From an uncultured Candidatus Saccharibacteria bacterium (lineage in GTDB: Bacteria > Patescibacteriota > Minisyncoccia > UBA6257 > 2-01-FULL-56-20): a stretch of DNA of 64,000 nt. The position numbers were made by a program, and so were the translations under genes. The notes below the pieces were generated by a model. That model had not been told where the DNA came from. It saw nothing but the letters and a program-made list of their open reading frames with translations, and made no database searches. Where the stretch lies: the NCBI GenBank assembly GCA_964416665.1, contig CAYQFA010000001.1, positions 40,082-104,081 on the forward strand, written 5' to 3'. Positions 23,797 through 57,613 of the stretch are shown here, piece by piece (positions within the stretch are counted from its first letter, which is position 1; the number at the start of each line of letters is the position of its first letter).

Positions 23797-23817
23797 ATGG
23801 GGTTCTTATAAAAATCA

Positions 23818-31160: not shown

Positions 31161-31260
31161 GGGATAGATTATAGTATAACCGATTTCGGGGACGATAGGG
31201 CTTGCGACCGCACTCTATCGCTTCTTGAATAAAATCCGCTCGCGCGATAAAATTATTGCT

Positions 31261-32097: not shown

Positions 32098-32131
32098 ACT
32101 TGGATTGACTTCGATTATTTCGGCCTCTACA

Positions 32132-32624: not shown

Positions 32625-32647
32625 CGACCAATTAAAATTTCATCAAT

Positions 32648-33568
32648 ATGATGTACGACGTCATTATCATCGGTGGCGGTCCCGGCGGCATCGCTGCCGG
32701 GGTTTACGCTGCGCGAAAAAAGATGAAGACGCTCTTGATCACCGACAGTTTCGGCGGACAGTCGCTGACGTCCGCGGGGATCGAGAATTGGATCGGCATA
32801 AAATCGATCTCGGGCTACGACCTCGCGAAGATGCTTGAGGAACATTTGCGTGCGCAGCAGGGTATCGAGATCGTTGATAACGACCTTGTGAGCGGCGTCA
32901 CAAAAAAGGATGGCGGTTTTGATGTTGTTACAAAGGGTGGTAAAACGTTCGAGACGAAATACATCCTTATGGCTTCGGGGAGCAGGAGAAAAAAGCTCGG
33001 TATTCCCGGCGAAGCGGAATTTGACGGCAAGGGCGTGGTGTATTGCTCGACGTGCGACGCGCCGATCTTCGGCGGTAAGACCGTGGTGGTCGTAGGCGGT
33101 GGAAATTCTGCGCTCGAATCGGTCGTCGATCTTCTGCCCTATGCGTCAAAGATCTATTTGATGGTTCGCAGTGACGTCATGCGGGGTGATCCTGTCACGC
33201 AGGAAAAATTGAAGAGTCATCCGCAGGTGGAGATTCTTTTCAATGCGGCGCCGCAGGAAGTAATTGGAAAAGATTTTGTGACCGGTTTGCGCTACAAAGA
33301 CGCGAAGACCGGCGAGCAAAAGGAATTGGCGCTCGACGGCGTCTTTGTCGAGATCGGTCTCGTGCCGAATTCCGATTTTGTAAAAGACCTCGTGACGCTG
33401 AACGAATTTGGCCATGTGATCGTCGATCACAAAACACAGCAGACGTCCTGCCCCGGCATCTGGGCCGCAGGCGACGTAAGCGACGTGCTCTACGACCAGA
33501 ATAATATCTCCGTAGGCGACTCTATCAAGGCAGTGTTGAATATCTACGACAGGGTGAAGAAGGATTAG
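32648..33568 (+). CDS. trxB: thioredoxin-disulfide reductase-like FAD/NAD(P) oxidoreductase
   Basis: FAD site DVIIIGGGPGGIAAG, redox-active CSTC, NAD(P) site VVVVGGGNSALE, and C-terminal GIWAAGDV. Confidence 0.7.
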   Translation: MMYDVIIIGGGPGGIAAGVYAARKKMKTLLITDSFGGQSLTSAGIENWIGIKSISGYDLAKMLEEHLRAQQGIEIVDNDLVSGVTKKDGGFDVVTKGGKTFETKYILMASGSRRKKLGIPGEAEFDGKGVVYCSTCDAPIFGGKTVVVVGGGNSALESVVDLLPYASKIYLMVRSDVMRGDPVTQEKLKSHPQVEILFNAAPQEVIGKDFVTGLRYKDAKTGEQKELALDGVFVEIGLVPNSDFVKDLVTLNEFGHVIVDHKTQQTSCPGIWAAGDVSDVLYDQNNISVGDSIKAVLNIYDRVKKD

Positions 33569-33791: not shown

Positions 33792-33837
33792 CATGTGCCC
33801 TTGCTATTTAGCCCAACTTGATGTATCATAATCCATA

Positions 33838-34104
33838 ATGCTTACTAAAAGAGTGAAATCCCGCATCGTCGGGGAACATAAAACGAGCGAAAAAGACACG
33901 GGTTCCGCCCAGGTTCAGGTTGCCATGCTTTCGCGTCAGGTTGGCGAACTCGCCACCCATCTCAAGAAAAATCCGAAGGATAACCATTCTCGTCGCGGGT
34001 TGTTAAAGATGGTCTCCAAGCGCAGGAAACTTCTGTCGTATCTGAAGAAACACGAGCCAGCCTCGTATGAAAAGTTGATCAAGAAGCTTGAACTTAAAAA
34101 ATAA
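33838..34104 (+). CDS. rpsO: 30S ribosomal protein S15
   Basis: 88 aa: MLTKRVKSRIVGEHKTSEKDTGSAQVQVAMLSRQVGELATHLKKNPKDNHSRRGLLKMV…. Confidence 0.9.
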   Translation: MLTKRVKSRIVGEHKTSEKDTGSAQVQVAMLSRQVGELATHLKKNPKDNHSRRGLLKMVSKRRKLLSYLKKHEPASYEKLIKKLELKK

Positions 34105-37139: not shown

Positions 37140-37165
37140 GTTTCTCTTGTGCTAGAATAAAACAA

Positions 37166-37528
37166 ATGGAAAATACTTCTAACTTTCAAGGTAGTATTCC
37201 CGGCGCACCGCCACCTCCATCGGAAGTGAAAGTCCGCACCATGCGCAGCGATTTGGAATCTATGACGAGAAGCGGCGGTGGTGCACCGCGCTTCGAGAAC
37301 GTGGCGGTCACGGGGCTGACCATGCAGGACGGAGCGCCACAGGCGGCAGAAACCGCCGGGGGACAAAGCGGTGCCGTTGGCACATCATTGCGATCGCTTT
37401 TGGGACCTGTTTTGGTCATAATCGTCGCCCTCGTCGCCCTCGCAGTCGTAGGGTATTTTGCATACACCGTTTTTAATTCTTCCGCGAGCCAAACGCCGGC
37501 ACCCGCGGCAACTCCAACGACCCCGTAG
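37166..37528 (+). CDS. hypothetical protein with a C-terminal TM helix (Pro/Ala-rich)
   Basis: ATG at 37166 (MENTSNFQ…). The upstream GTG of the track ORF lies inside the terminator stem. No homology recognisable. Confidence 0.3.
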   Translation: MENTSNFQGSIPGAPPPPSEVKVRTMRSDLESMTRSGGGAPRFENVAVTGLTMQDGAPQAAETAGGQSGAVGTSLRSLLGPVLVIIVALVALAVVGYFAYTVFNSSASQTPAPAATPTTP

Positions 37529-37563: not shown

Positions 37564-38619
37564 TTACTCTCCTTCCGGTCCAGCGACCTCTCCGACGGGA
37601 GTTTCCGCGATCTTCTTTTTTATCGCGCTGAGCAGCTTCTTATCTTCTTTGAGCTTTGTCCGCGCGTTTTCAAATCCAACACCAAGCCGCTCGCCTTCGA
37701 AGCTGAAACTTGATCCCGCTTTTTTTACCACGCCGCGGTTGACCGCTGCATTCAAAACATCGCCCTCATAGGAGATGCCTTCGTTGAAAAGAATATCGAA
37801 CTCCGCAAATTTGAACGGCGCGGCGACTTTATTTTTTACCACCTTCGCTTTCACGCGGTTACCGACGACATTCTCACCCCTCTTCACCTGCGCAATTCTG
37901 CGGATATCGATACGCACCGAGGCAGCAAAAGGGAGCGCCCGACCACCCGGGGTCGTTTCCGGATTACCGAACATGATGCCGATCTTCATGCGAAGCTGGT
38001 TGATAAAAATGACGAGCGTCTGGCTGGTCGCCGCGATCGCTGTGAGTTTGCGGAGCGCCTGACCCATCATGCGTGCCTGGCGTCCCACATGCTGCTCTCC
38101 CATTTCACCCTCGAGTTCTGCGCGCGGTACGAGCGCTGCGACGGAGTCCACAACGACCACCGATATCATGCCGGAGCGCACCAAACTTTCGAGAATATTC
38201 AAAGCTTCCTCGCCGCTGTCCGGCTGGGAAATAAGCAGCTCGTTCACGTTCACGCCCAGTTTCGCCGCGTATTGAGGATCCATGGCATGTTCCGCGTCAA
38301 TGAATGCCGCCGTTCCGCCCTGTTTTTGGGCCTGCGCGACGACGTTCAGGGCGAGGGTGGTCTTACCGCTGGATTCGGGGCCGAATATCTCGACGACGCG
38401 CCCGCGTGGAAGTCCGCCAACGCCGAGGGCAAGGTCGAGAGAGAAGGATCCGGTGGAGACTACGGAAACGTCCACTTTACTTACTTCGCCAAGACGCATG
38501 ATTGATCCTGCGCCAAATTTTTCCTGCATGGACGAAAGGAGATTCTCAAAATCCTTCGGGCTGGTTTGTTTGGCGGCTTTTGAAGGCGCCGCTCCTTTAT
38601 GCTTTTTTATAGGTGTCAT
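37564..38619 (-). CDS. recA: recombinase RecA
   Basis: Walker [13 protein letters not shown]; …[10 protein letters not shown]…; …VVVDSVAAL…. An extended -10 TGGTATAAT sits on the minus strand (38626-38634), 6 nt upstream of the ATG. Confidence 0.9.
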
Positions 38620-38653
38620 GGGTTCATTATACCAGAAGACACATTAAAAAAAT

Positions 38654-39415
38654 CTAAAGTCGGGTCGAGGTGGCGGTGCCGGTGGTAGTGCTTGCGCCAG
38701 GCCCGGAAACCGGGGTTGATGTGGCAGTTGTGGAATTATTGACGCTTCCCGTTGCGTTCGTGTTTGTATTGACGATCTGTTCGATAACATCCGTCTCGCC
38801 GCCGAGGAATTTTTTAGCGGCTATTTTGAACGAATTCAAGCCGCTTCCGAGCAACACCGGCTCCTGCCACGACCCATCCGAAGCGACGGCTATCTCCTGG
38901 CTATCGCTCGCTTCCTGATTATCGCCTACCAAATAAAGCGAATCGGCGTTTGTGACGGTGCCTTCAAGAACGAACGTGCTTGAAGAGGTGGTGTACGGAC
39001 TTTGATCGGGGGACGTGATGGCGATCGATGGTTTTCCTAAAATGCGCGGAAGTTGAAACGCGAGATAGATCAAAACGATCACCGCCACGCCGATCGCCCA
39101 TAAATATTTTGGCGGCGATTGTTTGATGAAACGATTGCGCGGAAGCGTGTCGAGCTCGCCGGAATTTTTGACGACGCCTTCCTTTTTCAATTTCATCCAC
39201 CACGCTTCGCCGTCGAAATCGAGGGCGTTGCCGAGATGGACGAGGTACCCATGGAAATACGGCGCCGACGGCATGCTTTCGTAATCCCCGCGCAGCAGGC
39301 TTTCAATATGTGTCGGGGCAATGCCTGTTATATCGGAGAGCTTTTTAAGGGAAATGCCTCGTTCTTTTATCTTTTCCGCAAAGAATTGCTCGAATGGTGT
39401 GTCGTTTGGGCTCAT
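38654..39415 (-). CDS. RodZ-like HTH (XRE) domain membrane protein
   Basis: N-terminal HTH (ISLKKLSDITGIAPTHIESLL), a single TM helix, and a Ser/Thr-rich C-terminus. -10 TAGAAT 8 nt upstream of the ATG. Confidence 0.55.
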   Translation of the reverse strand: MSPNDTPFEQFFAEKIKERGISLKKLSDITGIAPTHIESLLRGDYESMPSAPYFHGYLVHLGNALDFDGEAWWMKLKKEGVVKNSGELDTLPRNRFIKQSPPKYLWAIGVAVIVLIYLAFQLPRILGKPSIAITSPDQSPYTTSSSTFVLEGTVTNADSLYLVGDNQEASDSQEIAVASDGSWQEPVLLGSGLNSFKIAAKKFLGGETDVIEQIVNTNTNATGSVNNSTTATSTPVSGPGASTTTGTATSTRL

Positions 39416-39453
39416 ATGTCCTGATTCTAAGGCGCATCGCGAAATTAGTCCAC

Positions 39454-41604
39454 TTACGACAGCCGTTCTTCTATCTTTTCGATATTCACATCGCGTGCTT
39501 TTGCGCCATCACCGGGGCCAATGAGGTCAGCGGCTTCCATAAGGTCGAGCAGGCGCGCCGCGCGGGCATAACCGACTTTAAGGCGACGTTGGAGGAGCGA
39601 AGCGGAAGCTTTCTTTGCTTCGGCGACAACGGCGATCGCCTCATCAAAGAGATCGTCTTCATCCTCATCGTTGCCGCCTCCGCTTCCGCCATTAGCAACA
39701 AATGCCTCGAATGTTTGCGGCGTGATGCCCGCATGAGTCTCTATATTATCACTTTCGGTTTCCACCACCTGTACTTTGTTGTTCTCTTTTATGAAGCTCA
39801 CCACGCTCTTTAATTCCTCTTCGGTGATGTATGAACCCTGGATGCGCTTCGGCTTGGAAAGCTCCGCCGAGAGGAAGAGCAGGTCGCCGTGGCCAAGAAG
39901 CTTTTCCGCGCCGGCGGTGTCGAGGATGGTGCGCGAGTCGATTTGGCTGGCGACCTGGAGGGCCACGCGCGTCGGGATGTTTGCCTTGATAAGGCCCGTG
40001 ATCACCTCCACCGAGGGCCGTTGCGTCGCGAGGAGCAGGTGGATGCCGGTCGCGCGCGCCATTTGCGCCAAGCGTACGATGGCGCCTTCAACTTCGCGGC
40101 CAAAAGAGCTCATGAGGTCCGCCATTTCGTCGATACCGATGAGGATGAAGGGAAGCGCCTCGGTCGGGTTGGCTTTGTTATAGCTTGAGATGTCGCGACA
40201 ACCCGCTTTTTGCAGCACCTCATAACGGTGGTCCATTTCCGAGATCGCCCACTTCAGGACACTCAACGCCTTTTTATTTTCGGTGATCACCGGCGTGATC
40301 AGGTGGGGGATGCCGTCATACATGGAAATCTCGACGCGTTTCGGATCGATGAGTGCGAGCTTCAGTGGTTGCGGCGAATTTTTGAAAAGCAGTGAGGTGA
40401 TGAGCGAGTGGACGAGGATCGATTTGCCCGCACCGGTCGCGCCGGCGACCAGCATGTGCGGCATTTTCTCGATGTTCGCGAACACCGGTTGGCCGGAAAC
40501 ATCACGGCCAAGCACGAAGCCGAGCGGTCCTGAGGCCTGGAATTCCGGATAATGCATCAGGCTGCCGAGGCGCACGAGCGCAGCGGCGCGGTTCGGCACC
40601 TCGATGCCGACGAGCGACTTGCCCGGGATCGGCGCCTCGATGCGAATGGGATGTGCAGCGAGCGCGAGCGCGAGGTCGGAGCTCAGGGCGGTGATACGCG
40701 AAAGTTTCATGCCTTCGGCGGGCTTTAATGTGTAGCGCGTGACGGCAGGACCGACGTTGATCTCGCCCATCTCGACCGAGATGCCGAAGCTCTCGAGCGT
40801 ACGCTTGATGACGTTCGCATTCGCAAGGAGGTCGCCGGTGGTCGGCTTGCTCATATCCGAGTTCAAAAGCGAGAGCGGCGGTGGAACATAGTTCGCGAAG
40901 ACCGGCATTTTTGTCTTTTTCAGCTTTCCGGCGCCCTTTTCATCTTTTTGGTGGACGACCTCTATGTCATCAACCATCTTTTCTCCTCCTTTTTTATCTT
41001 TCTCCGGCGCCGTTTTTTCTTCCTCCAATTTTTCCACATCACCACCCGCTTCCGTCACCATGACAGGCGCCTCCTTTTCTTTCTTTTCCGGCCACTTGAA
41101 TTTTACGGGAATGTTCGCGGTGATGATGACGGAGATGATGAGGATGAAGATATCAATTACGAGAGCGGCGATGGTACCGAACGGGACCTTGAGCGATCCC
41201 AAAACCAAACCGAGCCATCCGCCGTTGCCGGGCGAAAGGATGTCGATAAAACCGAGGAACGAAAGGATCAGGAGTACCGCCCCAAGGAGAGTGATTCCCA
41301 AGATCTTTTTGCGTCCTGAAAATAAAAGGACGATTGCGGTAAAAAGGAGGGTCGCCGGCAGGATAAAGTAACCCCATCCCAGGAGGGTATTGAGGCCGTT
41401 GAAGATCGCCACGCCCGCCGGGCCCGCCAGTGCGAAATTCGCCAAAACGAGCACGATGGCCACGCAAATGAAGCTGATGGCCCAAATGCTGTTGGCTGCG
41501 TCGGGATGGAGGAGGGGTTCTTTGGCGGGAGCCGGGCTTCTTTTCTCTTTTTTGCCGTTGCTGTCGTTCTTCACGCTCTTCTTAACACCGTTCTTTTTTG
41601 CCAT
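39454..41604 (-). CDS. ftsK: DNA translocase FtsK/SpoIIIE
   Basis: N-terminal TM domain, low-complexity linker, and motor domain with Walker A VAGATGAGKS plus a gamma-domain-like C-terminus. Confidence 0.85.
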   Translation of the reverse strand: MAKKNGVKKSVKNDSNGKKEKRSPAPAKEPLLHPDAANSIWAISFICVAIVLVLANFALAGPAGVAIFNGLNTLLGWGYFILPATLLFTAIVLLFSGRKKILGITLLGAVLLILSFLGFIDILSPGNGGWLGLVLGSLKVPFGTIAALVIDIFILIISVIITANIPVKFKWPEKKEKEAPVMVTEAGGDVEKLEEEKTAPEKDKKGGEKMVDDIEVVHQKDEKGAGKLKKTKMPVFANYVPPPLSLLNSDMSKPTTGDLLANANVIKRTLESFGISVEMGEINVGPAVTRYTLKPAEGMKLSRITALSSDLALALAAHPIRIEAPIPGKSLVGIEVPNRAAALVRLGSLMHYPEFQASGPLGFVLGRDVSGQPVFANIEKMPHMLVAGATGAGKSILVHSLITSLLFKNSPQPLKLALIDPKRVEISMYDGIPHLITPVITENKKALSVLKWAISEMDHRYEVLQKAGCRDISSYNKANPTEALPFILIGIDEMADLMSSFGREVEGAIVRLAQMARATGIHLLLATQRPSVEVITGLIKANIPTRVALQVASQIDSRTILDTAGAEKLLGHGDLLFLSAELSKPKRIQGSYITEEELKSVVSFIKENNKVQVVETESDNIETHAGITPQTFEAFVANGGSGGGNDEDEDDLFDEAIAVVAEAKKASASLLQRRLKVGYARAARLLDLMEAADLIGPGDGAKARDVNIEKIEERLS

Positions 41605-41656
41605 GATGCAATCATTTTACCACCACTTTTCCGCCCACGCGATAGTGTCGCTCGGG

Positions 41657-43474
41657 TCAGAGGATATTGATGGTGATATTGGAGAGAATATCTTCGAATA
41701 CTTTTACCGCTGCTTCCTCTATAAGCTTCGCTTCCTCCTCGGTTTGCTCCTTTGTTTTCGCGCGGAGATCGCCTTTCACGGCGGTGTAATATTTCATTTT
41801 CGGTTCTGTACCGGAAGGCCGCACATGAAGGGAATTTCGCTCGTCGTCGTTAAAGAAAAACGAGAGCATGTCTCCTCTATCCCAATTCCTTGTCTCGATA
41901 AGCGTTCCGGTTTGTCCGTCTTTCACTTCGCCAGTAAGCCGGTCGATGACCTTGACGACTTTTCGTCCGCCGATCTCCCGCGGCAGATCTCCCCGAAGCT
42001 GTTTCATAGCATCATTCATTCGTTCAAAAGCTCCGAGACCTTCGATCGAGCGATAATAGAGGCGTTGGGCGTAGTAACCATATTTTTGGTAAATGGACTC
42101 AAGAAGCCTTTCTGGGGTCGTGCTGTTCGCCTTGCACCATGCTGCCATTTCAGCTGCCACGACCGCCGGCGTTTCCGCTCCTTTGTCCCGATAGGCGTCA
42201 CCAAAAAGATAGCCGCAGCTTTCCTCGCATCCCATGATAAAGTGCTTTTCCTCCGGCAGGTGTTGCAGGCGGTCGCCGATGAATTTGAATCCGACCAAAA
42301 GATCGCCGATGACCTCAGCGCCGAAACTTTCCGCGATATCGCGTACCAGTTCGGTGGTGACGGAGGTCTTTATCACGACGGGGTTGCTCGGCATGGCCTT
42401 TGCCTCGTAAAGGGCGTTCATATAGAAATATTCCAAGAGTGCAGCGCTCTGATTTCCGCTCAGAGGCCCCCAGGCCCCGCTTCTATCAGCGATCGCTATT
42501 CCTAACCGGTCCGCATCGGGATCTGAAACAATGGCGATGTCGGCGGCGATCTTTTCGGCCAACGCGATCGGTTTTTCGTACACCGCCAAAAGCTCCGGGT
42601 TCGGAAAATGATCCTTCACGGTGGGAAAATCCCCGTCCAGCGTCATCTGTTCCTCAACGACGGAAATATTTTTGAAGCCGATGCCTTGCAAAACGGGAAG
42701 CACCGATTGTGACCCAACGCCGTGAAGGGGAGAAAAGGCAATGGTGGTATCCCGTCCTGGGTAGACGGAGATATTCCTCGCCGCCGCTATGAAGGCCGCG
42801 TCAACCTCGTCGTTGATATAATGTATCGCCCCGCTCGCGATCGCTTCATCGAAGGAAATTTTCTTGATCTCTTTAATGCCGTTGAATTCCATCTCAATGA
42901 GCTTTCCGGCCTCTGGAAGTACCTGCACGCCGTTGGAATCATAGACTTTATACCCATTGAACTCCGGGGGATTATGGCTTGCAGTGATGACGATGCCGCC
43001 GGCGAGCTTCAGGTGGCGCACCGCGAAGGAAAGTTCCGGCGTTGCGCGATAATACTTGAAAATATGGACCGGGATGTTGTTTGCTGCGAGCACCCGGGCA
43101 GTTTCCTTCATGAACTCATCTGAATGATGTCGGCTGTCGTACGCGATGGCGACGCCTCGCGCAGCCGAATCAGGCTGGTATTTTATAAGATATTGCGCAT
43201 ATGCCTGGGAGGCCCAGCGTATCGTGTAGTTGTTGATGCGGTTGGTCCCGACATCCATCACCCCCCTGATCCCTCCCGTGCCAAACATAACGATCCGGTA
43301 GAACGCGTCCATGAGCATGGCCCAATCGCCGCGCTGTATCTTTTCCGTGAGGATCGGGGCGAACTCCTCGAATTCTTTTTCGGTCATCCAGCGCGTTATC
43401 TCGTCGTGGGCGGTCCGGTTCAGTTTTTTCTCCCGGAGCGCTGTCGCCAATTTCTCTTGTATGATGTTGTCCAT
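41657..43474 (-). CDS. phosphoglucomutase / phosphomannomutase family (alpha-D-phosphohexomutase)
   Basis: Active-site loop GIVITASHNPPEFNGYK and the metal-binding DPDADR motif. Confidence 0.8.
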   Translation of the reverse strand: MDNIIQEKLATALREKKLNRTAHDEITRWMTEKEFEEFAPILTEKIQRGDWAMLMDAFYRIVMFGTGGIRGVMDVGTNRINNYTIRWASQAYAQYLIKYQPDSAARGVAIAYDSRHHSDEFMKETARVLAANNIPVHIFKYYRATPELSFAVRHLKLAGGIVITASHNPPEFNGYKVYDSNGVQVLPEAGKLIEMEFNGIKEIKKISFDEAIASGAIHYINDEVDAAFIAAARNISVYPGRDTTIAFSPLHGVGSQSVLPVLQGIGFKNISVVEEQMTLDGDFPTVKDHFPNPELLAVYEKPIALAEKIAADIAIVSDPDADRLGIAIADRSGAWGPLSGNQSAALLEYFYMNALYEAKAMPSNPVVIKTSVTTELVRDIAESFGAEVIGDLLVGFKFIGDRLQHLPEEKHFIMGCEESCGYLFGDAYRDKGAETPAVVAAEMAAWCKANSTTPERLLESIYQKYGYYAQRLYYRSIEGLGAFERMNDAMKQLRGDLPREIGGRKVVKVIDRLTGEVKDGQTGTLIETRNWDRGDMLSFFFNDDERNSLHVRPSGTEPKMKYYTAVKGDLRAKTKEQTEEEAKLIEEAAVKVFEDILSNITINIL

Positions 43475-43510
43475 ATCACAAAGTTTAGCACTAGATGAAA
43501 AAGATATTAA

Positions 43511-43539
43511 ATTGACACTTGCGCGTCCCGAAGGTAAGA
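43511..43539 (+). promoter_or_regulatory. sigma70-like promoter for the exonuclease-iscS-htrA block
   Basis: TTGACA (43511-43516), 17 nt, TAAGAT (43534-43539). The leader contains hairpin TTCCGG-ATAACATA-CCGGAA. Confidence 0.4.
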
Positions 43540-43583
43540 TGCGGCTAACATCGGAGTTTTCCGGATAACATACCGGAAGCGTC

Positions 43584-44180
43584 GTGTATTATCTATATAT
43601 GGCCCTCGACACCCTCGTTTTCGACATAGAAACACAGAACTTTTTCACCGACCCCGACGTGGGCTGGGATAATTACGCCGCGCTCAAGATCTCCGTCGTC
43701 GCGGTCTATTCCTACCTTCAGGGCCGCTATTTTTGCTATGAGGAGAACGAGATGGATAAGCTGGTGGAACTTTTTGAGGACGCGCGGCGCATCGTCGGGT
43801 TCAGTATGAATCGCTACGACATCCCGGTACTTAACCAATATTTTCAAAAGATAAAAGGCGCGCCGCGGCTTTGGGAAATGGAACGCGTCGATCTATTGGA
43901 GGAGATAGAGATGTCCGCTGGCCAACGGGTGAGCCTGAACCGTCTTGCCGAGTTGAACCTTGGCGAAAAGAAGACGCATCATGGCTCGGAGGCGATCACA
44001 CTCTATCGCGACGGTAAAATGGACGAACTGAAGGAATATTGCATCAACGACGTCAAACTCACCAAGGGCCTTTACGACCTTTATCGCAAACAGAATTACT
44101 TGATGATGCCGGACAAAAAAACAGGAGAGATCATCAAGGTTGAATTTGCGAATTTGTCGATAACCCCGGCGCTCTTATAA
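43584..44180 (+). CDS. RNase H-like 3'-5' exonuclease (DEDD / PolB-exo-like)
   Basis: LVFDIETQNFF (Exo I) …YDIPVLN…; alternative start at 43599. Confidence 0.5.
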   Translation: MYYLYMALDTLVFDIETQNFFTDPDVGWDNYAALKISVVAVYSYLQGRYFCYEENEMDKLVELFEDARRIVGFSMNRYDIPVLNQYFQKIKGAPRLWEMERVDLLEEIEMSAGQRVSLNRLAELNLGEKKTHHGSEAITLYRDGKMDELKEYCINDVKLTKGLYDLYRKQNYLMMPDKKTGEIIKVEFANLSITPALL

Positions 44181-45356
44181 ATGAAGCACATATATTTTGA
44201 TTACGCTGCATCAACGCCGCTTGATATACGCGTAGAGCGGGCCATGCGGCCTTATTTTTTAAAACATTTCGGTAACCCGGGATCACTGCACTATTTTGGG
44301 CAGGAGGCGATCGCTGCGGTTGACGCGTCGCGTGAAAAACTCGCGCGGCTGATCAATGCCGATTTTCGCGAGGTCGTCTTTACCGGTTCTGCGACGGAGG
44401 CCAATAACTTGGCGCTTCGTGGGGCGGTGCGGGCATGGCAGGAACAACACATCGGGGTTCAGCCGCGCGTGGTTGTCTCCGCGATCGAACACGAATCCGT
44501 GCTTGAGACGGTGCGCGATCTGGCGCGCGATGGCGTCGAGGTGGTTTATCTTCCGGTAGACCGCGCCGGAGTTGTCAGCCTTACGGCGCTTCGTAGCGCG
44601 TTCAACGAGCGGACGGTCATCGTCTCCATCATGTATGCCAATAATGAGATCGGCGTGGTTCAGCCGGTGGTGGAAATCGCCAAGATCATCGCTGAGTTCA
44701 AAAAAACCGCGCGTTATCCATTGTTTCATGCCGACGCCGTTCAGGCCTTCCAGTTCTTGAACTGCGACGTCCGCGTGCTCGGTGTCGATATGATGACGCT
44801 CTCGGCGCACAAAATTTACGGCCCCAAAGGGATTGGTCTTCTTTACGCCAAAAACGCGACGGCCGAGCCCTCCTATATAAGAGGCGAGATCGCGGGCGGC
44901 GGTCAAGAGTTCGGTTTGCGTTCGGGAACCGAGAATGTTCCGCTGATCGTGGGGTTCGCCAAGGCGGCGGAGATTGCGCTTGCGGTGCAGAAAAAAGAAG
45001 CGAAGCGCACCCTCATCATTCGCAATTACCTCCTGAAGAACATTAAAAAAATATTTCCCGCAGCCGAGGTCAACGGGGGAGTCGATGATAACGCCGCCGT
45101 CGCGACACTGCCCAACATCCTCAATGTTTATATTCCTGACCATACTGCCGAAGACATGGTGGTGAAGTTGGATCTGGCGGGCATCGCCGTTTCTGCGGGA
45201 TCGGCGTGCCGCGCCCGCGCGTTGACGTCGTCACACGTCGTTGAAGCGCTCGGCTATGCAAAAGAGCGGGCAAAATCCAGCCTACGGTTCAGTCTTGGGC
45301 GTCAAACAAAAAAAGAGGAGGTGGTGAAACTTTTTGACCGGCTCGTCGGTATATAA
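44181..45356 (+). CDS. cysteine desulfurase (class V aminotransferase, IscS/NifS-like)
   Basis: …VVFTGSATEANNLAL…, PLP-lysine region SAHKIYGPKGIG, and the catalytic-loop cysteine AVSAGSACRAR. Confidence 0.8.
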   Translation: MKHIYFDYAASTPLDIRVERAMRPYFLKHFGNPGSLHYFGQEAIAAVDASREKLARLINADFREVVFTGSATEANNLALRGAVRAWQEQHIGVQPRVVVSAIEHESVLETVRDLARDGVEVVYLPVDRAGVVSLTALRSAFNERTVIVSIMYANNEIGVVQPVVEIAKIIAEFKKTARYPLFHADAVQAFQFLNCDVRVLGVDMMTLSAHKIYGPKGIGLLYAKNATAEPSYIRGEIAGGGQEFGLRSGTENVPLIVGFAKAAEIALAVQKKEAKRTLIIRNYLLKNIKKIFPAAEVNGGVDDNAAVATLPNILNVYIPDHTAEDMVVKLDLAGIAVSAGSACRARALTSSHVVEALGYAKERAKSSLRFSLGRQTKKEEVVKLFDRLVGI

Positions 45357-45373
45357 TAGTAAGAGAAGTACCT

Positions 45374-46663
45374 ATGACGAGAACAAGAAAAGCAACCATC
45401 ATTGCGATTGTCGTTGTTATTGTGGTGGTTTTTGGTGTCTGGTTGCGCAAGCCACACATCCCCGCCGCAGTAAGCAATCCTTTTATCACCTTTTGGCATG
45501 ACATCCGTTCGCCGCTCGTACCAAAGGGAGGTCGGAGTGTTTTATCTAATAATTCGTCGTCCTCCGCCACCGTCCTTTACCAACCCGACAATGATTATGA
45601 GGCGGCAGTGATCGCCGCAGTACAAAAGGCGTCGCCCGCCGTGGTCTCGATCACCGTTTCCGAGAATGTTCCCATTATAGAGAACTGCCCCGACAATTCT
45701 TTCGACCTTAACGGCCTTGACCCCGAATTCCAGCAACTTTTCGGAGACATTCTTCCGACATCAACGCCCTGCGACAGTGGAAAAACAGAATTTCAGGAAG
45801 TTGGCGGCGGAAGCGGCTTTATCATCTCTCCCAACGGACTGATCCTCACCAACAAACACGTGGTTTCGGACACGAATGCGTCCTATTCGGTGCTCACGAA
45901 CGACGGCAAGACCTACACTGCGAAAGTGCTCGCGCGCGATTCCAATCAGGACCTTGCCATTCTCAAGATCAATGCGACGGGATTGCCGACCGTGACGCTT
46001 GGTGACTCGAACGGCTTGCAGCTCGGCCAGACGGCGATTGCGATCGGCAATGCGCTTGGCCAGTTTTCCAACACCGTCTCGGTCGGCGTCGTTTCCGGAC
46101 TTTCCCGAACGGTCACTGCGGCTGCGCCCGATAGCGATATTCCGGAGACCATCACGGGCGTCATCCAGACCGATGCTGCCATCAATCCCGGCAATTCTGG
46201 CGGCCCACTGCTCGACCTGCGCGGCGAGGTGATCGGCATCGATACCGCTATCGCTTCCGATGCGCAAGATATCGGCTTTGCCATCCCCATCGATCAGGCG
46301 AAATCGGCCATAAGCTCAGTAGAAGCAACAGGGCAGATCCAGGTTCCCTATCTTGGCGTGCGATATGTTCCGGTGGATGCCGATCTTGCCACAAGCCAGA
46401 AGCTGCCGATAGCGTACGGCGCCCTCATCCGCGGCGACGCCGACGGTCCTGCGGTTGAGCCGGGATCACCGGCGGCAAAAGCCGGCATTCAGACCGGGGA
46501 CATCATTGAATCGGTGAGCGGGGAGAAGATCGACGCGGATCACGACCTCGGGAACATCATCGACCAATATAATGTGAGCAGTACGGTCGTTCTGGTGATC
46601 AACCGAAAGGGTAAGGAGATGACCATGCCGGTGGTCTTGGCCAAGCGGCCTGCCGGAATATAG
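45374..46663 (+). CDS. HtrA/DegP-family serine protease with PDZ domain
   Basis: Catalytic triad context TNKHVV…DLAILKI…GNSGGPLLD, an N-terminal TM anchor, and a C-terminal PDZ-like region. Confidence 0.8.
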   Translation: MTRTRKATIIAIVVVIVVVFGVWLRKPHIPAAVSNPFITFWHDIRSPLVPKGGRSVLSNNSSSSATVLYQPDNDYEAAVIAAVQKASPAVVSITVSENVPIIENCPDNSFDLNGLDPEFQQLFGDILPTSTPCDSGKTEFQEVGGGSGFIISPNGLILTNKHVVSDTNASYSVLTNDGKTYTAKVLARDSNQDLAILKINATGLPTVTLGDSNGLQLGQTAIAIGNALGQFSNTVSVGVVSGLSRTVTAAAPDSDIPETITGVIQTDAAINPGNSGGPLLDLRGEVIGIDTAIASDAQDIGFAIPIDQAKSAISSVEATGQIQVPYLGVRYVPVDADLATSQKLPIAYGALIRGDADGPAVEPGSPAAKAGIQTGDIIESVSGEKIDADHDLGNIIDQYNVSSTVVLVINRKGKEMTMPVVLAKRPAGI

Positions 46664-46695
46664 CGGGGTGGGTGATTAGCAATCTAGTGCTTCGA

Positions 46696-46724
46696 TTGAC
46701 AATGGGGTGCGACGAACCTATAAT
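46696..46724 (+). promoter_or_regulatory. perfect-consensus sigma70 promoter for clpB (leaderless)
   Basis: TTGACA (46696-46701), 17 nt, TATAAT (46719-46724). The clpB ATG at 46731 is only 6 nt downstream. Confidence 0.55.
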
Positions 46725-46730
46725 AACCTT

Positions 46731-49382
46731 ATGCCAAACTTTCACCGTTTTACTATAAAAGCACAGGAAGCGTTGCAGAATGCGCAAGAGATCGCGGCAA
46801 AAAAGAACCACGGCGAGCTGAAATCGCTTCATCTTCTGGCGGCGCTTTTGGAAGACGAGCAGTCGCTGGTCATTCCGGTGCTTGAGCGCTCCGGAGTCGA
46901 CCTTTCCAAACTCGATGAGCAAATAGAGGTGGAGCTCGACCGCATTCCTCCCATTCTTGCCAATTCTTCCGTCGGCCAATTGTATCTTTCTCAGGAGTTG
47001 ATGAAAGTGCTTGATCAGGCGGCAAAAATTGCCGCCCAGCAGAAAGACGAATTCGTTTCGTGCGAGCACCTTCTTTTGGCGTTGCTCGACGTCCAGGGTC
47101 CGACGAAATCTCTTTTGGAAAAATTCGGCGCAAAGCGCGAGCAGGCGTTTCGTGTTCTGGCCCAACTCCGCGGTTCGGTGCGTGTCACGGACGAGACGCC
47201 GGAGAGCAAGTTCCAGGTGCTTGAAAAATATGCGATCAACCTGAGCGATAAAGCGAAGGCCGGCCAGCTTGACCCGGTGATCGGCCGCGAGGAGGAACTG
47301 CGGCGGCTTATGCAGGTGCTTTCGCGCCGCACGAAGAACAATCCGTGCCTCATTGGTGAGCCGGGCGTCGGCAAGACCGCCATCGTGGAAGGCCTGGCCC
47401 AGCGTATCGCTTCCGGCGATGTTCCGGAGCTTTTGAAAGGTAAACAGGTTTTGATGCTCGATTTGGGATCTCTTATCGCCGGAACGAAGTTCCGTGGCGA
47501 GTTCGAGGACCGTTTAAAGGCTTTTGTAAAAGAAGTGAAGAACGCTGCCGGACAGATCATCTTGTTTATAGATGAAATTCACACCATCGTTGGTGCCGGC
47601 GCCGCTGAAGGTGCGATCGATGCCTCGAACTTATTGAAGCCCGCGCTCGCGCGTGGCGAATTGCATGCCATCGGCGCAACCACCATTCGTGAATATCAGA
47701 AATATATAGAGAAGGATCCCGCGCTTGAGCGGCGCTTCCAGCCGATCACCGTCGAAGAGCCTTCTATTGAGGACTCCATCGCCATTTTGCGTGGTCTTAA
47801 GGAAAAATATGAGATCCATCACGGCATGCGCATCAGCGACGAGGCGATCATCGAGGCGGTCAATCTTTCTGCGCGGTATATCACCGATCGCTTTTTGCCC
47901 GATAAAGCCGTTGACCTCATAGACGAGGCCGCTGCTGCACGAAGATTGGAATCGGAAAGTTTGCCGAAGGAGATCGACAGGATTCGTCGTGAGATAACGC
48001 GGTTGGAGGTGGAGAAACAATCGCTTTCAAAGGAAGGGCAAAAAAGCGTTGCGCGCTTGAAGGAGATCGATGGCCACCTTGCGAAGCTGAAAGAGGAAAA
48101 CGACGAGCTTTCAAGTAAATGGCATTCGGAGAAAATAAAATTCGAGACCCTGCATCAGCTTCGCCAGAAAGTTGATAATTTGAAGCGCGAGGCGGAAGTT
48201 GCCGAGCGCGAGGCGAACCTTGAGCGCGTGGCAGAGATCATTTACGGCGAGTTGCCTGCGGCGGAAAAGGATTTCCAGATATTTGAAAAGAAAAACTTCG
48301 GCGCTACCGCCACCAAGCGGGCCCGGGCCGGTGGTAAAGTTCCGGATGATCGCTTCCTTAAGGAGGCGGTGGACAAGGAGGATGTTGCGGCGGTGGTCGC
48401 CGTGTGGACTGGCATCCCACTGAAGCGGATGCTTGAGACGGACACTGAAAAGCTTATTCACATCGAGGAGGTGTTGCACGAACGGGTGGTCGGACAGGAA
48501 GAGGGGATCGGCGCCGTTGCGTCCGCACTCCGCCGTGCACGGGCAGGGCTTTCTGACGCCAATCGTCCCATTGGATCGTTCATGTTCCTCGGTCCTACGG
48601 GCGTTGGTAAGACCGAGCTTGCCCGCGCCCTCGCGGAATTGATGTTCAACGACGAAAAGGCCCTTATTCGCGTGGACATGTCCGAATATATGGAACGTCA
48701 CGCGGTCAGTCGCCTTGTCGGTTCGCCGCCTGGCTATGTGGGACACGAGGAAGGCGGCCAGCTTACCGAAATGATCAGGCATCGTCCTTATAGCGTCATT
48801 CTTTTTGATGAGATCGAGAAGGCCCATCCCGAAGTATTCAATTTACTTTTGCAGGTGCTTGATAACGGCCGCCTCACCGACAGCAAGGGCAAAACGGTGA
48901 ACTTCAAGAATTCCATCATCATTATGACCTCGAACGTCGGCAGCGAATATTTGAAGGCGATGTCCCGCATCGGATTCAGCACTGACGGCGGTGATGCTTC
49001 CCATCAGGAGAGCGATTATCGGGAGAAGGTCATGGAAGCGCTCAAATCGGGTTTCCGGCCGGAGTTTTTGAACCGCATCGACGAGATCGTTATATTCAGA
49101 CCCCTTCGCAAGGCGGACATTGAGAAGATCGTGGATATCCAGATCAAGCTTATCGAAAGCCGCCTTGCCGAGCGGAATATCAAGCTTGCCATCGAACCCG
49201 CCGCCCGTGCTTATCTCTCCAAAGAGGGATTCAGCGCCGAATTCGGTGCCCGACCCTTGAAGCGTCTCATCCAGAAGGTTATCCTTGATAGGTTGGCGGA
49301 CAAGATCATTCGTGGGGAATTCAAAGACGGGGGGAGGGTGAAGGTGAATTTCAAAGCGAATGCGCTTACGTTCACGCCGTAA
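46731..49382 (+). CDS. clpB: ATP-dependent chaperone ClpB
   Basis: Two AAA+ modules ([15 protein letters not shown] and [15 protein letters not shown]) and a long middle coiled-coil. ATG at 46731 (MPNFHRF…). Confidence 0.9.
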
Positions 49383-49385
49383 ATA

Positions 49386-50129
49386 ATGCCACTGCGCAAA
49401 CTGCGGGCGCTAAAATCCAAGGCGATCTCCATGCGCGGCTCCCTTATAAGGGCCGGCGTCTTTGCGGTCGCCTGGATGATCCTCCCGTGGTGGCTGTTCA
49501 TCCCCGTTGCGCTCTACCTCTATTTCGTCCCCTTATCCCAGGCAAAGATCGCGGTCGCGCCATTTATTACCCTCTTAGCGCTTTGTTTTGTTCAGCCGAC
49601 AGGATGGTGTGCCGCCGTCATCTTCGGCGTCATCTTTTTATATGTTCTCCTCATCAAAGACCTCTATATCATTAACAGGAAGTCCGCTTATGAGATGCTC
49701 TCGCTTATCCTTATGTTCCTTCTCGTGAGGATTTTTTATCTTGATATGGCTGGGCAGGCCGGAGTCTTTTCCATTTTGTGCGCGTTTGTTGTTGCGGCGC
49801 TGTTCGCAAGCCTCGTCAGTGGCTTTGTAAGCCATTTTTCTCCCGACGCCGGGGCGCCGGTAGCGGATGCGACCACGCAAAAACCCCTTCGGCGCACCAC
49901 AACGCTCATTGCCCTTCTTCTCTTCTTCCAATTTCTTATCGTAGGACTTTTCCTTCCGCTGGATTTCATTTATCAATCGGTGGTCGTCTTTCTGATCGGT
50001 ACGCTCATCATCGAGTTCTTCCCGTATTACCTTTTCGGAACCTTTTCGCGTACCAAGCTGCTTACCACCTCAAGCGTCGTATTCACTTTGCTTGTGCTGG
50101 TACTTGGCTCAGCTCGCTGGGGATTGTAG
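49386..50129 (+). CDS. hypothetical polytopic membrane protein
   Basis: About 7 hydrophobic helices, no recognisable motifs. The ATG lies 3 nt after the clpB stop. Confidence 0.35.
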   Translation: MPLRKLRALKSKAISMRGSLIRAGVFAVAWMILPWWLFIPVALYLYFVPLSQAKIAVAPFITLLALCFVQPTGWCAAVIFGVIFLYVLLIKDLYIINRKSAYEMLSLILMFLLVRIFYLDMAGQAGVFSILCAFVVAALFASLVSGFVSHFSPDAGAPVADATTQKPLRRTTTLIALLLFFQFLIVGLFLPLDFIYQSVVVFLIGTLIIEFFPYYLFGTFSRTKLLTTSSVVFTLLVLVLGSARWGL

Positions 50130-50138
50130 AATAGAGAT

Positions 50139-50945
50139 ATGAAAAAAATCACCAAATTGGTACTGCCCATTGCCGGGCTCGGCAAACGCCTGCTTCCTCT
50201 TACTGCGATAACTCCAAAGAATCTCATTCCCGTGAATGGCAAACCCATTTTGGAGTATGTCCTTGAAGAGGCGGTTGCGAGCAAGATAAAAGAGGTGATA
50301 CTTATCATCAATCCCAAACACCTTAAGGATTTCAAGGCGTATCTTGCAAAGAACAAGAAGCGGTTTCCCACGCTTACGTTCCATATCCGCATCCAGGAAA
50401 CGCCGGGCGGAAATGGCCATGCGATCGCTCAGGCTTATGATCTCGTGAAAGGCGAGCCTTTCGCGGTACGTTTCTGTGATGATGTGCTTTCGGGCGAGCC
50501 GGCTGCACTTCCGGCGCTCCTTGAGATCTTCAAAAAATATCAGGCGTCGGTGGTGCTTCTGGAAGCGGTTCCCAAGGCTGATGTCTCGCGGTTCGGGGTC
50601 GTTGGGTTTGAAAAGGGGAAGGCGGCAACGGCCTCCTTCGCTGGCGGGACCATTTATAAAATAAACAAGATAATTGAAAAGCCAAAAACGAAAGACGCAC
50701 CTTCGAATTTGATCATCGTCGGCGGTTATGTGCTTACCCCGGACATACTCCGCAATCTAAAAATGGTTGCCGATACTTTGCCGGTCGTTGCCGACGATGC
50801 GTTGCCGCTCGCGGTGGCGCTGCAGATCGAATTGATCGTTAAGGGCAGAATTTATGGCTGGGAATTTCCCGGCAAGCGCCTTGATTGCGGCACGTTGGAA
50901 AAGTTGCAGCAAACGGAAGAATACCTGAGAAACAACAAGCAGTAA
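50139..50945 (+). CDS. galU: UTP-glucose-1-phosphate uridylyltransferase-like nucleotidyltransferase
   Basis: N-terminus KLVLPIAGLGKRLLPLTAITPKNLIPV and a GalU-like body. Confidence 0.65.
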   Translation: MKKITKLVLPIAGLGKRLLPLTAITPKNLIPVNGKPILEYVLEEAVASKIKEVILIINPKHLKDFKAYLAKNKKRFPTLTFHIRIQETPGGNGHAIAQAYDLVKGEPFAVRFCDDVLSGEPAALPALLEIFKKYQASVVLLEAVPKADVSRFGVVGFEKGKAATASFAGGTIYKINKIIEKPKTKDAPSNLIIVGGYVLTPDILRNLKMVADTLPVVADDALPLAVALQIELIVKGRIYGWEFPGKRLDCGTLEKLQQTEEYLRNNKQ

Positions 50946-51026
50946 TCCGGCAAAACAAAACAGTCCCTTTCCGGCTCGTGATGAGAATAATTCGCCGGAA
51001 AGGGACTGTTTTGTTTTGCCGGATTA
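50941..51026 (+). repeat. perfect 34-bp palindrome IR1 with an asymmetric 18-nt centre
   Basis: GTAATCCGGCAAAACAAAACAGTCCCTTTCCGGC - TCGTGATGAGAATAATTC - GCCGGAAAGGGACTGTTTTGTTTTGCCGGATTAC. The first arm contains the galU stop codon. Confidence 0.7.
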
Positions 51027-51089
51027 CTGCTTTATTTTCTTTAGGTTCTTCCGTTTGCTGCAACTTTATCTTTCCGGCAAAGCCATACG

Positions 51090-51179
51090 GCAATTGCAGG
51101 ATAGCAAGGAGAATGGCTTTCCGGCGAATTATTCTCATCACGAGCCGGAAAGCCATTCTCCTTGCTATCCTGCAATTGC
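51090..51179 (+). repeat. perfect 36-bp palindrome IR2 with the same 36-nt core as IR1 in opposite orientation
   Basis: GCAATTGCAGGATAGCAAGGAGAATGGCTTTCCGGC - GAATTATTCTCATCACGA - GCCGGAAAGCCATTCTCCTTGCTATCCTGCAATTGC. The centre is the reverse complement of the IR1 centre. Confidence 0.7.
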
Positions 51180-51181
51180 TA

Positions 51182-51190
51182 TGGTATAAT
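51182..51190 (+). promoter_or_regulatory. extended -10 element (TGGTATAAT) 6 nt upstream of the regulator ATG
   Basis: TGGTATAAT followed by CCGGCA-ATG. It is identical to the box upstream of recA. Confidence 0.4.
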
Positions 51191-51196
51191 CCGGCA

Positions 51197-51862
51197 ATGC
51201 TAGAGAACGGCAAGGATCGCTTTATTTTTACGAAATCTTATGAGATTGCTTACGCCTTGTTTCGTATGGCAGGGCAAATTGAAGAAAAGGATTTTTCCGA
51301 AAGGCTGAGGGTGCTTGGGGGATCGTTGCTTCAGGCTTCGGCAGGGCAGGATTACGTCGAGGCGAGCAAATCATTGCAAATGATCGAGTGTCTGGCAAAG
51401 TTCGCGGGAGATGTGAACATAATTAGCTCGGCGAACTCTAATATCTTCCTTGGGGAGATATACACACTCGATGCGGCAATTATAGAGTACCGCAATGCGG
51501 CAAATAACGACCGGCTGAACTTGTCGGATATCTTTTCCAAAACCGAACCGGAAGTGACCCCTCCGCCGGTGGTTTATGATAATCCGGCAAACAATAATCC
51601 GGCAATGGAAATTGCCGCAAGCGAGATGCCGGTAGCCGATAGTGCGGCAAATAATATGAAAGCGGAAATGCGGCAATCTACCATCGTGGAAAGAATCCGG
51701 CAATCCGGCAATTGCCGCTTGAAGGATATCAGGGAACTTTTGCCGGATACCAGCGAGCGGACCATCCGATATGACCTTCAATCCCTTCTCGAGAAGAACC
51801 TTATCGAGCGGGTAGGGGATGGAGGGCCGTCGGTGTTTTATCGGTTGCGGGAGTTGGCATAG
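51197..51862 (+). CDS. putative transcriptional regulator: N-terminal helical domain, low-complexity linker, C-terminal DeoR-type winged HTH
   Basis: The C-terminus STIVERIRQSGNCRLKDIRELLPDTSERTIRYDLQSLLEKNLIERV is DeoR-HTH-like. ATG at 51197; the track ORF starts earlier, inside the palindromes. The linker DNA carries the AATCCGGCAA repeats. Confidence 0.45.
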   Translation: MLENGKDRFIFTKSYEIAYALFRMAGQIEEKDFSERLRVLGGSLLQASAGQDYVEASKSLQMIECLAKFAGDVNIISSANSNIFLGEIYTLDAAIIEYRNAANNDRLNLSDIFSKTEPEVTPPPVVYDNPANNNPAMEIAASEMPVADSAANNMKAEMRQSTIVERIRQSGNCRLKDIRELLPDTSERTIRYDLQSLLEKNLIERVGDGGPSVFYRLRELA

Positions 51863-56132: not shown

Positions 56133-56159
56133 TTGATTTTCCCCTGATTTTGCTATAAT
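56133..56159 (+). promoter_or_regulatory. promoter of the HU gene with extended -10
   Basis: TTGATT, 15 nt, TGCTATAAT (TG at 56151-56152, TATAAT at 56154-56159). Confidence 0.4.
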
Positions 56160-56171
56160 AATAAGGAACGA

Positions 56172-56540: not shown

Positions 56541-56566
56541 TTGTGATCTGTGGTACAATAAAGGCA

Positions 56567-57579: not shown

Positions 57580-57613
57580 GTCTGGTTGCGGCCGAAATGG
57601 TAGAATTTTCCGC

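Follow-up and report, generated by a model that had tools for sequence, protein, structure and literature searches.

Known leaderless systems and the locus analysed

Leaderless-rich genomes, which GeneMarkS-2 assigns to its 'group C', carry the Pribnow box 6-8 nt from their gene starts, and this group is frequent in Actinobacteria (90%) and Deinococcus-Thermus (97%) (PMC6028130). The usual distance between a -10 box and the transcription start site (TSS) is ~7 bp (PMC12641261). Here we analyse -10 boxes that directly precede ATG start codons in a 64,000-nt stretch of DNA (the window), which is 99.99% identical to the 119.5-kb metagenome contig JGI 3300041809 Ga0455670_0001261. The predicted architecture matches 'group C', save that the non-leaderless genes of the window lack Shine-Dalgarno (SD) sites. 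It is a known design, that of Actinobacteria and Deinococcus, in an additional lineage, and the mechanism itself is not new. Full-text searches returned no paper that ties leaderless mRNAs or mapped TSSs to any of Saccharibacteria, Patescibacteria, the candidate phyla radiation (CPR) and TM7x. Loss of the anti-SD sequence has been reported in one study, for a Parcubacteria subgroup only (PMC9297842).

The 'group C' Actinobacteria (Mycobacterium tuberculosis, M. smegmatis, Corynebacterium, Streptomyces) resemble the window in the Pribnow box 6-8 nt before first genes and in a large share of transcription units without a 5' untranslated region, with the start codon at the 5' end, a property that is predicted here. 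In M. tuberculosis, however, the other ~60% of operons have SD-type sites (PMC6028130), whereas SD motifs are not enriched in the window. Furthermore, the window belongs to the Patescibacteria, has a GC content of ~53%, and its -10 boxes are near the Escherichia coli consensus and often TGn-extended. In Deinococcus deserti and Deinococcus-Thermus, the majority of mapped genes are leaderless with the -10 box directly before the start, according to the account of de Groot 2014 given in PMC6028130; by the same account, the proof there came from differential RNA sequencing and proteogenomics, whereas our evidence, from an unrelated phylum, consists of sequence statistics and conservation. Leaderless genes of Archaea (Haloferax, Sulfolobus; 'group D') likewise give mRNAs that begin at the start codon and have no SD, but their box lies ~26 nt upstream, whereas the window peaks only at 6-9 nt and shows a bacterial sigma-70 motif.

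Gene starts were the calls of public pipelines mapped onto the window (n=62), and we compared them with ~60 genes in relatives, with 5-21 kb per compared locus. The best RecA relative in a species-level genome collection was the metagenome-assembled genome (MAG) L004, with 86% amino-acid identity, followed by L005, labelled 'Candidatus Saccharibacteria' (70%), and by several Saccharibacteria and Patescibacteria MAGs (58-67%); MAGs from other phyla (57-70%) were interleaved from the second tier down. The gene order clpB ... RNase_H_2 ... ftsK-rodZ-recA is common to the window, L004, and L005. From RecA similarity and this synteny, we infer that the organism is a Saccharibacteria-like member of the Patescibacteria (CPR). 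The related loci used below are L004 and L065, from the genome scan, and L089, L090, and L091, from a metagenome scan, with protein identities of 76-88%.

A -10 box lies 6-9 nt before ATG in a large share of genes

A TANNNT hexamer ending 6-9 nt before the start codon was found at 24 of the 62 pipeline starts, or at 25 once the start of a winged helix-turn-helix (wHTH) regulator is corrected. When the proximal 40 nt of these upstream regions were shuffled 1000 times with dinucleotides preserved, the expectation was 5.05 +/- 2.19. The statistics of -10-to-ATG distance proposed as a check in the original prediction, run for the window, gave a sharp peak that is restricted to spacers of 6-9 nt, with none comparable at other spacers. 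Three extra sites lie at plausible alternative starts (tmk 63470, DsbA 31261, SPW 32141), and over all 28 sites the spacer measures 6 nt in ten cases, 7 nt in ten, 8 nt in four, and 9 nt in four. The box is present before ~40% of the window genes and before ~60% of the genes without tight coupling to the preceding gene, where tightly coupled means on the same strand as the upstream gene with a gap of 8 nt or less. The fraction of genes predicted to be leaderless accordingly lies above a level of at least 25%, both overall (25/62) and among non-coupled genes (24/41). The 28 sites and, in last place, the second FkbM gene are as follows, with promoter hexamers, spacers in nt, and start codon:

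38617..38634, minus strand: recA, TGGTATAAT-gaaccc-ATG (TGG-TATAAT, 6 nt), first possible start; TATAAT-7-ATG in L004
39413..39452, minus strand: rodZ-like (HTH_25), start 39415, TGGACT-17-TAGAAT-8-ATG; TAGAAT and 8-nt spacer kept in L004
41602..41622, minus strand: ftsK, TGG-TAAAAT-9-ATG; identical TGGTAAAAT-9-ATG in L089
43472..43490, minus strand: pgm, start 43474, TGCTAAACT-7-ATG (TGC-TAAACT)
43565..43601, plus strand: RNase_H_2-like, start 43599 (also the pipeline start), ATAACA-16-TATTAT-6-ATG
46696..46733, plus strand: clpB, start 46731, TTGACA-17-TATAAT-aacctt-ATG, 12/12 consensus match
50104..50141, plus strand: NTP_transferase, TTGGCT-17-TAGAAT-6-ATG, promoter within the upstream gene's 3' end; conserved in L090 and L091
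51162..51199, plus strand: wHTH (HTH_DeoR C-terminal) regulator, start 51197, TTGCTA-17-TGGTATAAT-ccggca-ATG (TGG-TATAAT, 6 nt)
4095..4112, minus strand: holin_4_2-like, TGG-TACAAT-6-ATG
5649..5666, minus strand: iPGM, TGT-TAGAAT-6-ATG
7319..7335, plus strand: Wzy_C, TATAAT-8-ATG
8794..8809, plus strand: hypothetical 218-aa protein, start 8807 inside the upstream gene, TACACT-7-ATG
9529..9567, plus strand: rfbF-like NTP_transferase, start 9565, TTGACT-18-TAATAT-6-ATG
12858..12875, plus strand: Glyco_transf_11, start 12873, TGA-TACAAT-6-ATG
15494..15511, plus strand: hypothetical 258-aa protein, TAGAAT-9-ATG
27561..27600, minus strand: epimerase, TTCACA-16-TGC-TATAAT-9-ATG, 11/12 consensus match
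31158..31176, minus strand: dedA, start 31160, TACTATAAT-7-ATG (TAC-TATAAT)
32633..32650, plus strand: trxB-like, TAAAAT-9-ATG
33801..33840, plus strand: rpsO (S15), TTGCTA-17-TATCAT-8-ATG
37150..37168, plus strand: hypothetical 120-aa protein, TGC-TAGAAT-7-ATG
56551..56569, plus strand: hypothetical 155-aa protein, start 56567, TGG-TACAAT-7-ATG
57598..57616, plus strand: EamA transporter, TGG-TAGAAT-7-ATG; TGCTAGAAT-7-ATG in L091
60378..60392, minus strand: glmS, TATGCT-6-ATG-TGC (Met-Cys)
60458..60497, plus strand: dCTP deaminase, TTGACC-17-TACAAT-8-ATG
3488..3503, minus strand: SBP_bac_5, TAGTTT-7-ATG, weak hexamer
63468..63485, minus strand: tmk, alternative start 63470, TATACT 9 nt or TACTTT 7 nt before ATG
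31248..31263, plus strand: DsbA/Thioredoxin_4, alternative start 31261 (pipelines disagree), TAAAAT-7-ATG
32105..32143, plus strand: SPW protein, candidate alternative start 32141, TTGACT-17-TACAAT-7-GTG; the pipeline ATG 32132 lies inside the -10 box
23807..23820, plus strand: second FkbM, start 23818, TATAAA-5-ATG

The eight genes cited in the original prediction (recA, wHTH, clpB, rodZ-like, rfbF, dedA, second FkbM, pgm) all carry the hexamer and spacing claimed for them. The second FkbM gene, with its short 5-nt spacer, is the weakest of these examples because its hexamer lacks the final T. The range given there, 38617-51199, brackets only recA to wHTH; the pattern itself extends across the whole window, with 25 sites and the three alternative ones. 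The 9-mer TGGTATAAT had been described as reused. It occurs twice (0.19 expected), at recA and wHTH, but the flanks of the two copies share nothing and the 9-mer is simply the consensus extended -10 box, which rules out a repeated element. The arrangement TGNTANAAT-N6-ATG occurs five times against 0.08 expected. As a separate observation, the RNase_H_2-like gene has a second promoter-like site, TTGACA-17-TAAGAT, 58 nt upstream.

A peak of this kind might be an artefact of AT-rich upstream sequence combined with motif-biased choice of starts, by the reader or by gene finders; some starts were indeed 'corrected' by means of the motif, and callers of the GeneMarkS-2 type can learn such a motif. 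We consider this explanation extremely improbable, as the shuffles never attained the observed count (maximum 13 versus 24) and motif-blind rules give the same peak. This holds for the longest open reading frame (ORF) and for the first ATG in the ORF: with the latter rule, applied to our own ORF-based gene set, 33% of genes have a hexamer matching at least 5/6 at a spacer of 5-9 nt, compared with 1.3% of internal in-frame ATGs and 1.9% of all ATGs. A promoter-centric count on both strands, which is independent of gene calls, points the same way: for 19 of the 104 TANAAT hexamers, an ATG that opens an ORF of at least 80 codons follows at 6-9 nt, against a background of ~1.8 per equivalent bin at other spacers, i.e., a 10-fold enrichment. 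In addition, for 17 of the 25 starts, no earlier start codon is possible between the upstream in-frame stop and the start itself, and each of the 17 is the only possible upstream start in its ORF.

The box has the features of a sigma-70 promoter

Positions 4 and 5 of the hexamer, left free by the filter, are A in 22/28 (79%) and 23/28 (82%) of the sites, giving the consensus TAnAAT. A TGn extension is found at 10/24 sites compared with 7.8% of all TANNNT in the window (p=6e-6), and a match of at least 4/6 to TTGACA at a distance of 16-18 nt is equally frequent (10/24 versus 12% background, p=2.5e-4). In an unbiased count of 5-mers at positions -17..-5, the top words were ATAAT, TATAA, TAAAA, AATAA, TAATA, AGAAT, TAGAA, TACAA, ACAAT, and TGGTA, and SD 5-mers stood at expectation, with no enrichment. 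The base just before the ATG is a pyrimidine in 20/28 sites, which fits a Y-1/R+1 transcription start. These features point to a sigma-70 promoter, mostly an extended -10 box with a weak or absent -35 box.

Conversely, the motif could be an A/T-rich, non-SD translation signal on leadered mRNAs, as in the 'group B' Bacteroidota. SD motifs are unused both there and in the window, and an A-rich sequence lies just before the window's non-leaderless starts. In 'group B', however, the motif stands before first and internal genes alike and has no promoter character. GeneMarkS-2 uses precisely this distribution, first-gene versus operon-internal occurrence, to tell promoters from ribosome sites (PMC6028130). 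In the window, only 1/20 tightly coupled genes have the motif, compared with 24/41 of the others (Fisher p=5.6e-5). A ribosome signal would be expected before operon-internal genes too (PMC6028130), and the near absence of TAnAAT from coupled genes therefore indicates a promoter and not a ribosome site. Moreover, tRNA-Gly and tRNA-Leu have the same consensus promoters at ordinary leader distances of 34 and 53 nt; since tRNA genes are not translated, identical boxes before them argue against a translation signal. The sigma-70 features, namely the invariant T1/A2/T6, A at positions 4 and 5, TGn, and the -35 box at 16-18 nt, also speak against this explanation, which we regard as very unlikely.

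Start codons and Shine-Dalgarno sites

All 25 starts preceded by the motif are ATG. Homology to orthologues begins at the same ATG for S15, rodZ, clpB, the 155-aa protein, EamA, NTP-transferase, and wHTH. The Met-Cys start of glmS is fixed independently by Cys2, the catalytic N-terminal residue of the GlmS family.

The original prediction held that few genes have a convincing SD, and the pairing energies bear this out: assuming a canonical anti-SD, 16% of all starts reach -4.4 kcal/mol or lower, compared with 19% of random positions. The share is 8% among the 25 motif-preceded starts and 22% among the other genes, so that leadered and internal genes show no enrichment of SD-type sites over random positions either. 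A true SD on a leadered transcript was found in a handful of cases only (IMPase, GHMP kinase). Instead, the stretch at -10..-1 before non-leaderless starts is rich in A and poor in G (4.05 A versus 2.36 at random positions, p=1e-7). In ~20 genes, the start overlaps the upstream stop codon or lies right beside it (gaps of -20 to +8 nt), which suggests reinitiation coupling. Between them, these two arrangements account for most of the genes without the box. Folding of the 5' ends did not discriminate between the two gene classes: in each, there is less structure over the first 40 nt than in internal windows.

The start codons proposed in the original prediction were compared with the pipeline calls and with relatives. 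For clpB, the proposed start 46731 and the pipeline call are the same, and the N-terminus MPNFHRF is conserved in L004, L005, L089, and L091. For wHTH, the protein match in L089, L090, and L091 begins at the proposed start 51197. The pipeline start 51113 adds 84 nt that lie inside a hairpin with a 36-bp stem, and the upstream frame is broken by stops in all three orthologues, in L091 only 5 codons upstream; judged by these relatives, the pipeline start is wrong. In contrast to wHTH, the alternative start 56172 proposed for hup, with its SD (AAGGA), did not hold up. The 12-residue basic N-terminal extension called by the pipeline is not conserved, the relatives keep only ATG 56208, and L091 has an in-frame stop ahead of the conserved MNKKGL start that is the counterpart of 56208. 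We therefore take 56208 as the start, which makes HU leadered and SD-less. In tmk, the shorter form (63470) is favoured, since residue 24 of the pipeline protein is where the Pfam domain Thymidylate_kin begins. The pipeline starts of HU, tmk, and DsbA are probably wrong.

Conservation and turnover in relatives

When orthologous upstream regions were aligned on the ATG, T1, A2, and T6 of the hexamer were identical in 33/33 comparisons. Identity was 91% at positions 3-5, 78% in the spacer, and 69% in the 22 nt further upstream. The distance from box to ATG is retained despite upstream indels, as in the 155-aa protein (TGCTATAAT-7-ATG in L089 and TGATATAAT-7-ATG in L091). These alignments indicate that the -10 box and its exact distance from the ATG are under strong purifying selection. 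Among individual promoters, TTGCTA-17-TG(G/C/A)TATAAT-6-ATG of wHTH is conserved in L089, L090, and L091, and the rpsO arrangement, with TTGCTA as -35 box and either TATGAT or TATCAT as -10 box at 7-8 nt, is conserved in L004 and L065.

Promoters have also turned over, as at clpB: L089 and L091 have a TTGACA promoter 31 nt from the ATG together with a second -10-like box at 6 nt, and L005 has TGGTATAAT 26 nt upstream. In a separate observation, the Aminotran_5 gene of the window (44172-44183) starts directly at the upstream stop, as TTATAA-ATG; its counterparts in L004, L005, L089, and L091 have TATAAT-6/7/8-ATG, and in L089 and L091 the -10 box contains the upstream gene's stop codon.

With the same crude pipeline, all six clade members (window, L004, L065, L089, L090, L091) show the motif at 30-38% of their genes. 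Enrichment at spacers 6-9 in the call-independent test was 10-fold for the window and 11-fold for its clade. It was 1.7-fold for L005 and L016, 1.8-fold for Saccharibacteria-labelled loci, 2.6-fold for other Patescibacteria, 0.9-fold for Alphaproteobacteria, and 0.5-fold for one Firmicute. On these values, the clade of the window looks strong in the trait and the rest of the CPR weak or patchy; with only the 1.8-fold and 2.6-fold values just given, an extension to all CPR is unsupported.

Probable leaderless expression and its rivals

The original prediction of widespread leaderless expression agrees with the spacing, the promoter features, the exclusive use of ATG, the SD counts, the coupling, and the conservation, all of which are as such expression would predict. 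We consider it highly probable that sigma-70 extended -10 promoters (TGnTAnAAT) abutting the ATG give rise to leaderless mRNAs and to SD-independent translation. RNA polymerase with the housekeeping sigma factor would bind the extended -10 box and begin transcription ~7 bp past it, i.e., on the A of the ATG with a 6-nt spacer and on that A or 1-3 nt earlier with spacers of 7-9 nt. The resulting mRNA would have a 5'-terminal AUG and no SD, the ribosome would bind this AUG directly, and downstream cistrons would be translated through coupling. Many of these promoters sit in the 3' end of the preceding gene.

Several points weigh against this explanation. Whether the promoters are active, where exactly transcription starts, and how the mRNAs are translated are all read from the sequence. 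Many of the genes lie 9-50 nt after a gene on the same strand with no terminator between them, which means that read-through transcripts with an internal ATG must also exist. The 8-9-nt spacers (8 sites) may give leaders of 1-3 nt and would then not be strictly leaderless. A generic -35/-10 scan of 37-52.5 kb returned 15 hits versus 10 +/- 3 in shuffles, which is not significantly higher; this agrees with weak -35 boxes and reliance on the extended -10, the signal residing in the -10 box and its position and not in matches to both hexamers. The SD test presupposes a canonical anti-SD, and the 16S rRNA gene lies outside the window. Finally, the actinobacterial positive control L066 (10 genes, 70% GC) gave 0 hits, a sample too small to validate the pipeline. 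The first-ATG pipeline is unvalidated on high-GC sequence, and it is mainly the call-independent test that supports the low values for Alphaproteobacteria and Myxococcota.

A further explanation holds that the promoters exist but play a minor part: most protein would come from longer read-through or polycistronic transcripts through SD-independent initiation (such as A/U-rich, S1-type, or reinitiation), and leaderless mRNA would be a side product or back-up. The same-strand gaps of 9-52 nt without hairpins before many of these genes would suit it, as would the non-leaderless genes, which clearly initiate without SD behind A-rich, G-poor stretches, and HU and pnp, which use conserved SD-less leaders. 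It is nevertheless unlikely in our view: purifying selection on the box and on its exact distance from the ATG, and the recurrence of the arrangement in ~60% of non-coupled genes, would be hard to explain if the transcripts were unimportant.

Whether dominant leaderless expression extends to the lineage as a whole is a proposition on which we are evenly divided. It would state that the soil, peat, and bog Saccharibacteria-like lineage comprising the window, L004, L065, and L089-L091 is almost wholly SD-independent, with ~60% leaderless units and the rest using stop-start coupling or A-rich leaders. If so, it would rank with Actinobacteria and Deinococcus as leaderless-dominant, the first case shown in the CPR, and would extend the small set of leaderless-rich bacteria. 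Within the CPR, the trait would be specific to this clade, because other Saccharibacteria loci show it only weakly. SD use is apparently negligible in the lineage, which bears on the evolution of initiation with reduced ribosomes. Speculatively, the trait might be linked to the reduced CPR ribosome or ease gene exchange with leaderless-rich actinobacterial hosts. In practice, start calls in CPR MAGs of this clade can be checked and corrected by means of the -10 box, and TGnTAnAAT, 6-7 nt, and ATG would serve as a design rule for expression in Saccharibacteria-like organisms.

Leadered genes and other upstream regions

The clear leadered genes are IMPase and GHMP kinase, which have an SD; hup, pnp, and a 1276-aa PG_binding gene, which have conserved upstream blocks; and htrA. 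Three of them serve as counter-examples to the leaderless sites:

23443..23543, minus strand: IMPase, TTGACT-18-TG-n-TATTAT ending 62 nt before ATG; SD AAGGAGG 6 nt before ATG
56133..56210, plus strand: hup (HU), TTGATT-15-TGC-TATAAT, ~42-nt A-rich leader, ATG 56208
45349..45376, plus strand: htrA, TATAAT 16 nt before ATG; conserved ~9-nt purine-rich leader

IMPase had been named as an SD exception in the original prediction, rightly so, given that its AAGGAGG pairs at -11.7 kcal/mol. The hup promoter TTGATT-15-TGCTATAAT is conserved. Upstream of pnp (start 34955), ~50 nt (34895-34954) are conserved in L004 and L065 (GCTCAGGATGACAAGACTC...GGTTCGC...), and pnp has no -10 box at 6-9 nt; the block is probably a structured or regulatory leader. 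The region upstream of the 1276-aa PG_binding_1 gene (52140-52205, AAAGAATTCGGAAAAGAATTCTTAGGTCGATAACTTAAAAAAATCGAAATAAAAATTAAA) is nearly identical in L089, L090, and L091 despite a protein identity of only 66-74%, which suggests that the region is a conserved leader or operator.

IMPase and the second FkbM gene diverge from a 372-nt region (23446-23817). On its plus strand, a strong orphan extended -10 box, TGGTAGAAT, at 23559-23567 is followed by a 2-codon ORF, and the region also contains two more TATAAT boxes and a 3-codon mini-ORF with AGGAG. The region may serve as a leader or encode a small RNA.

In the contig's gene calls, positions 1-1347 at the left end of the window belong to the 3' part of a minus-strand RNase J gene. 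The plus-strand ORFs 178-360 and 520-1065 that our ORF caller returned there are spurious.

Long intergenic hairpins

Intergenic regions of the window carry a family of hairpins that are very long and nearly perfect, with arms of 17-53 nt:

33555-33696, long hairpin
33732-33812, long hairpin
37064-37142, long hairpin
50923-51046, long hairpin
51090-51179, long hairpin (perfect 36 bp, -75 kcal/mol, z = -12.8)
57043-57123, long hairpin
57274-57326, long hairpin
57485-57579, long hairpin
58478-58539, long hairpin

Four of them end 5-21 nt before the -10 box of a predicted leaderless gene (wHTH, S15, the 120-aa protein, EamA), which places the -35 region in the 3' arm; at wHTH, the -35 box lies within the 3' arm of 51090-51179. 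The pipeline ORF 33590-33811, a hypothetical 73-aa protein that starts with TTG and has no Pfam hit, is almost wholly covered by hairpins 33555-33696 and 33732-33812 and is probably no gene. Using gathering and E-value thresholds, Rfam returned only tRNAs and sub-threshold 'miRNA precursor' matches, the latter corresponding to the long hairpins.

The outer stems differ between copies, and the apical parts belong to a few conserved types. Type A reads ..CTTTTnGACC-TGCTG(Y)G-NNNN-C(R)CAAC-GGTCnAAAAG.., with a compensatory change in the mini-stem from TGTG/CACA to TGCG/CGCA. Type B, TTTCCGGC-GAATTATTCTCATCACGA-GCCGGAAA, occurs in both orientations, at 50976 and 51126, and type C is GACC-GAATCGCGCGGACGCTAAA-GGTC. 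At the wHTH site, the window and L091 have the outer stem in common, but the apical core is of type B in the window and of type A in L091. Judging from this core swap, the loops of terminator-like palindromes may be invaded or replaced by small elements. Other Patescibacteria loci also have many long hairpins, with a conserved apex of their own: L076 (2756-20115), L014 (3722-4943), and L091 (2150-16255). In L076, a Saccharibacteria MAG, 11 long hairpins were found in 21 kb, six of them with ACCCTTTGCAAAGGGT, and such hairpin families may be common in CPR genomes.

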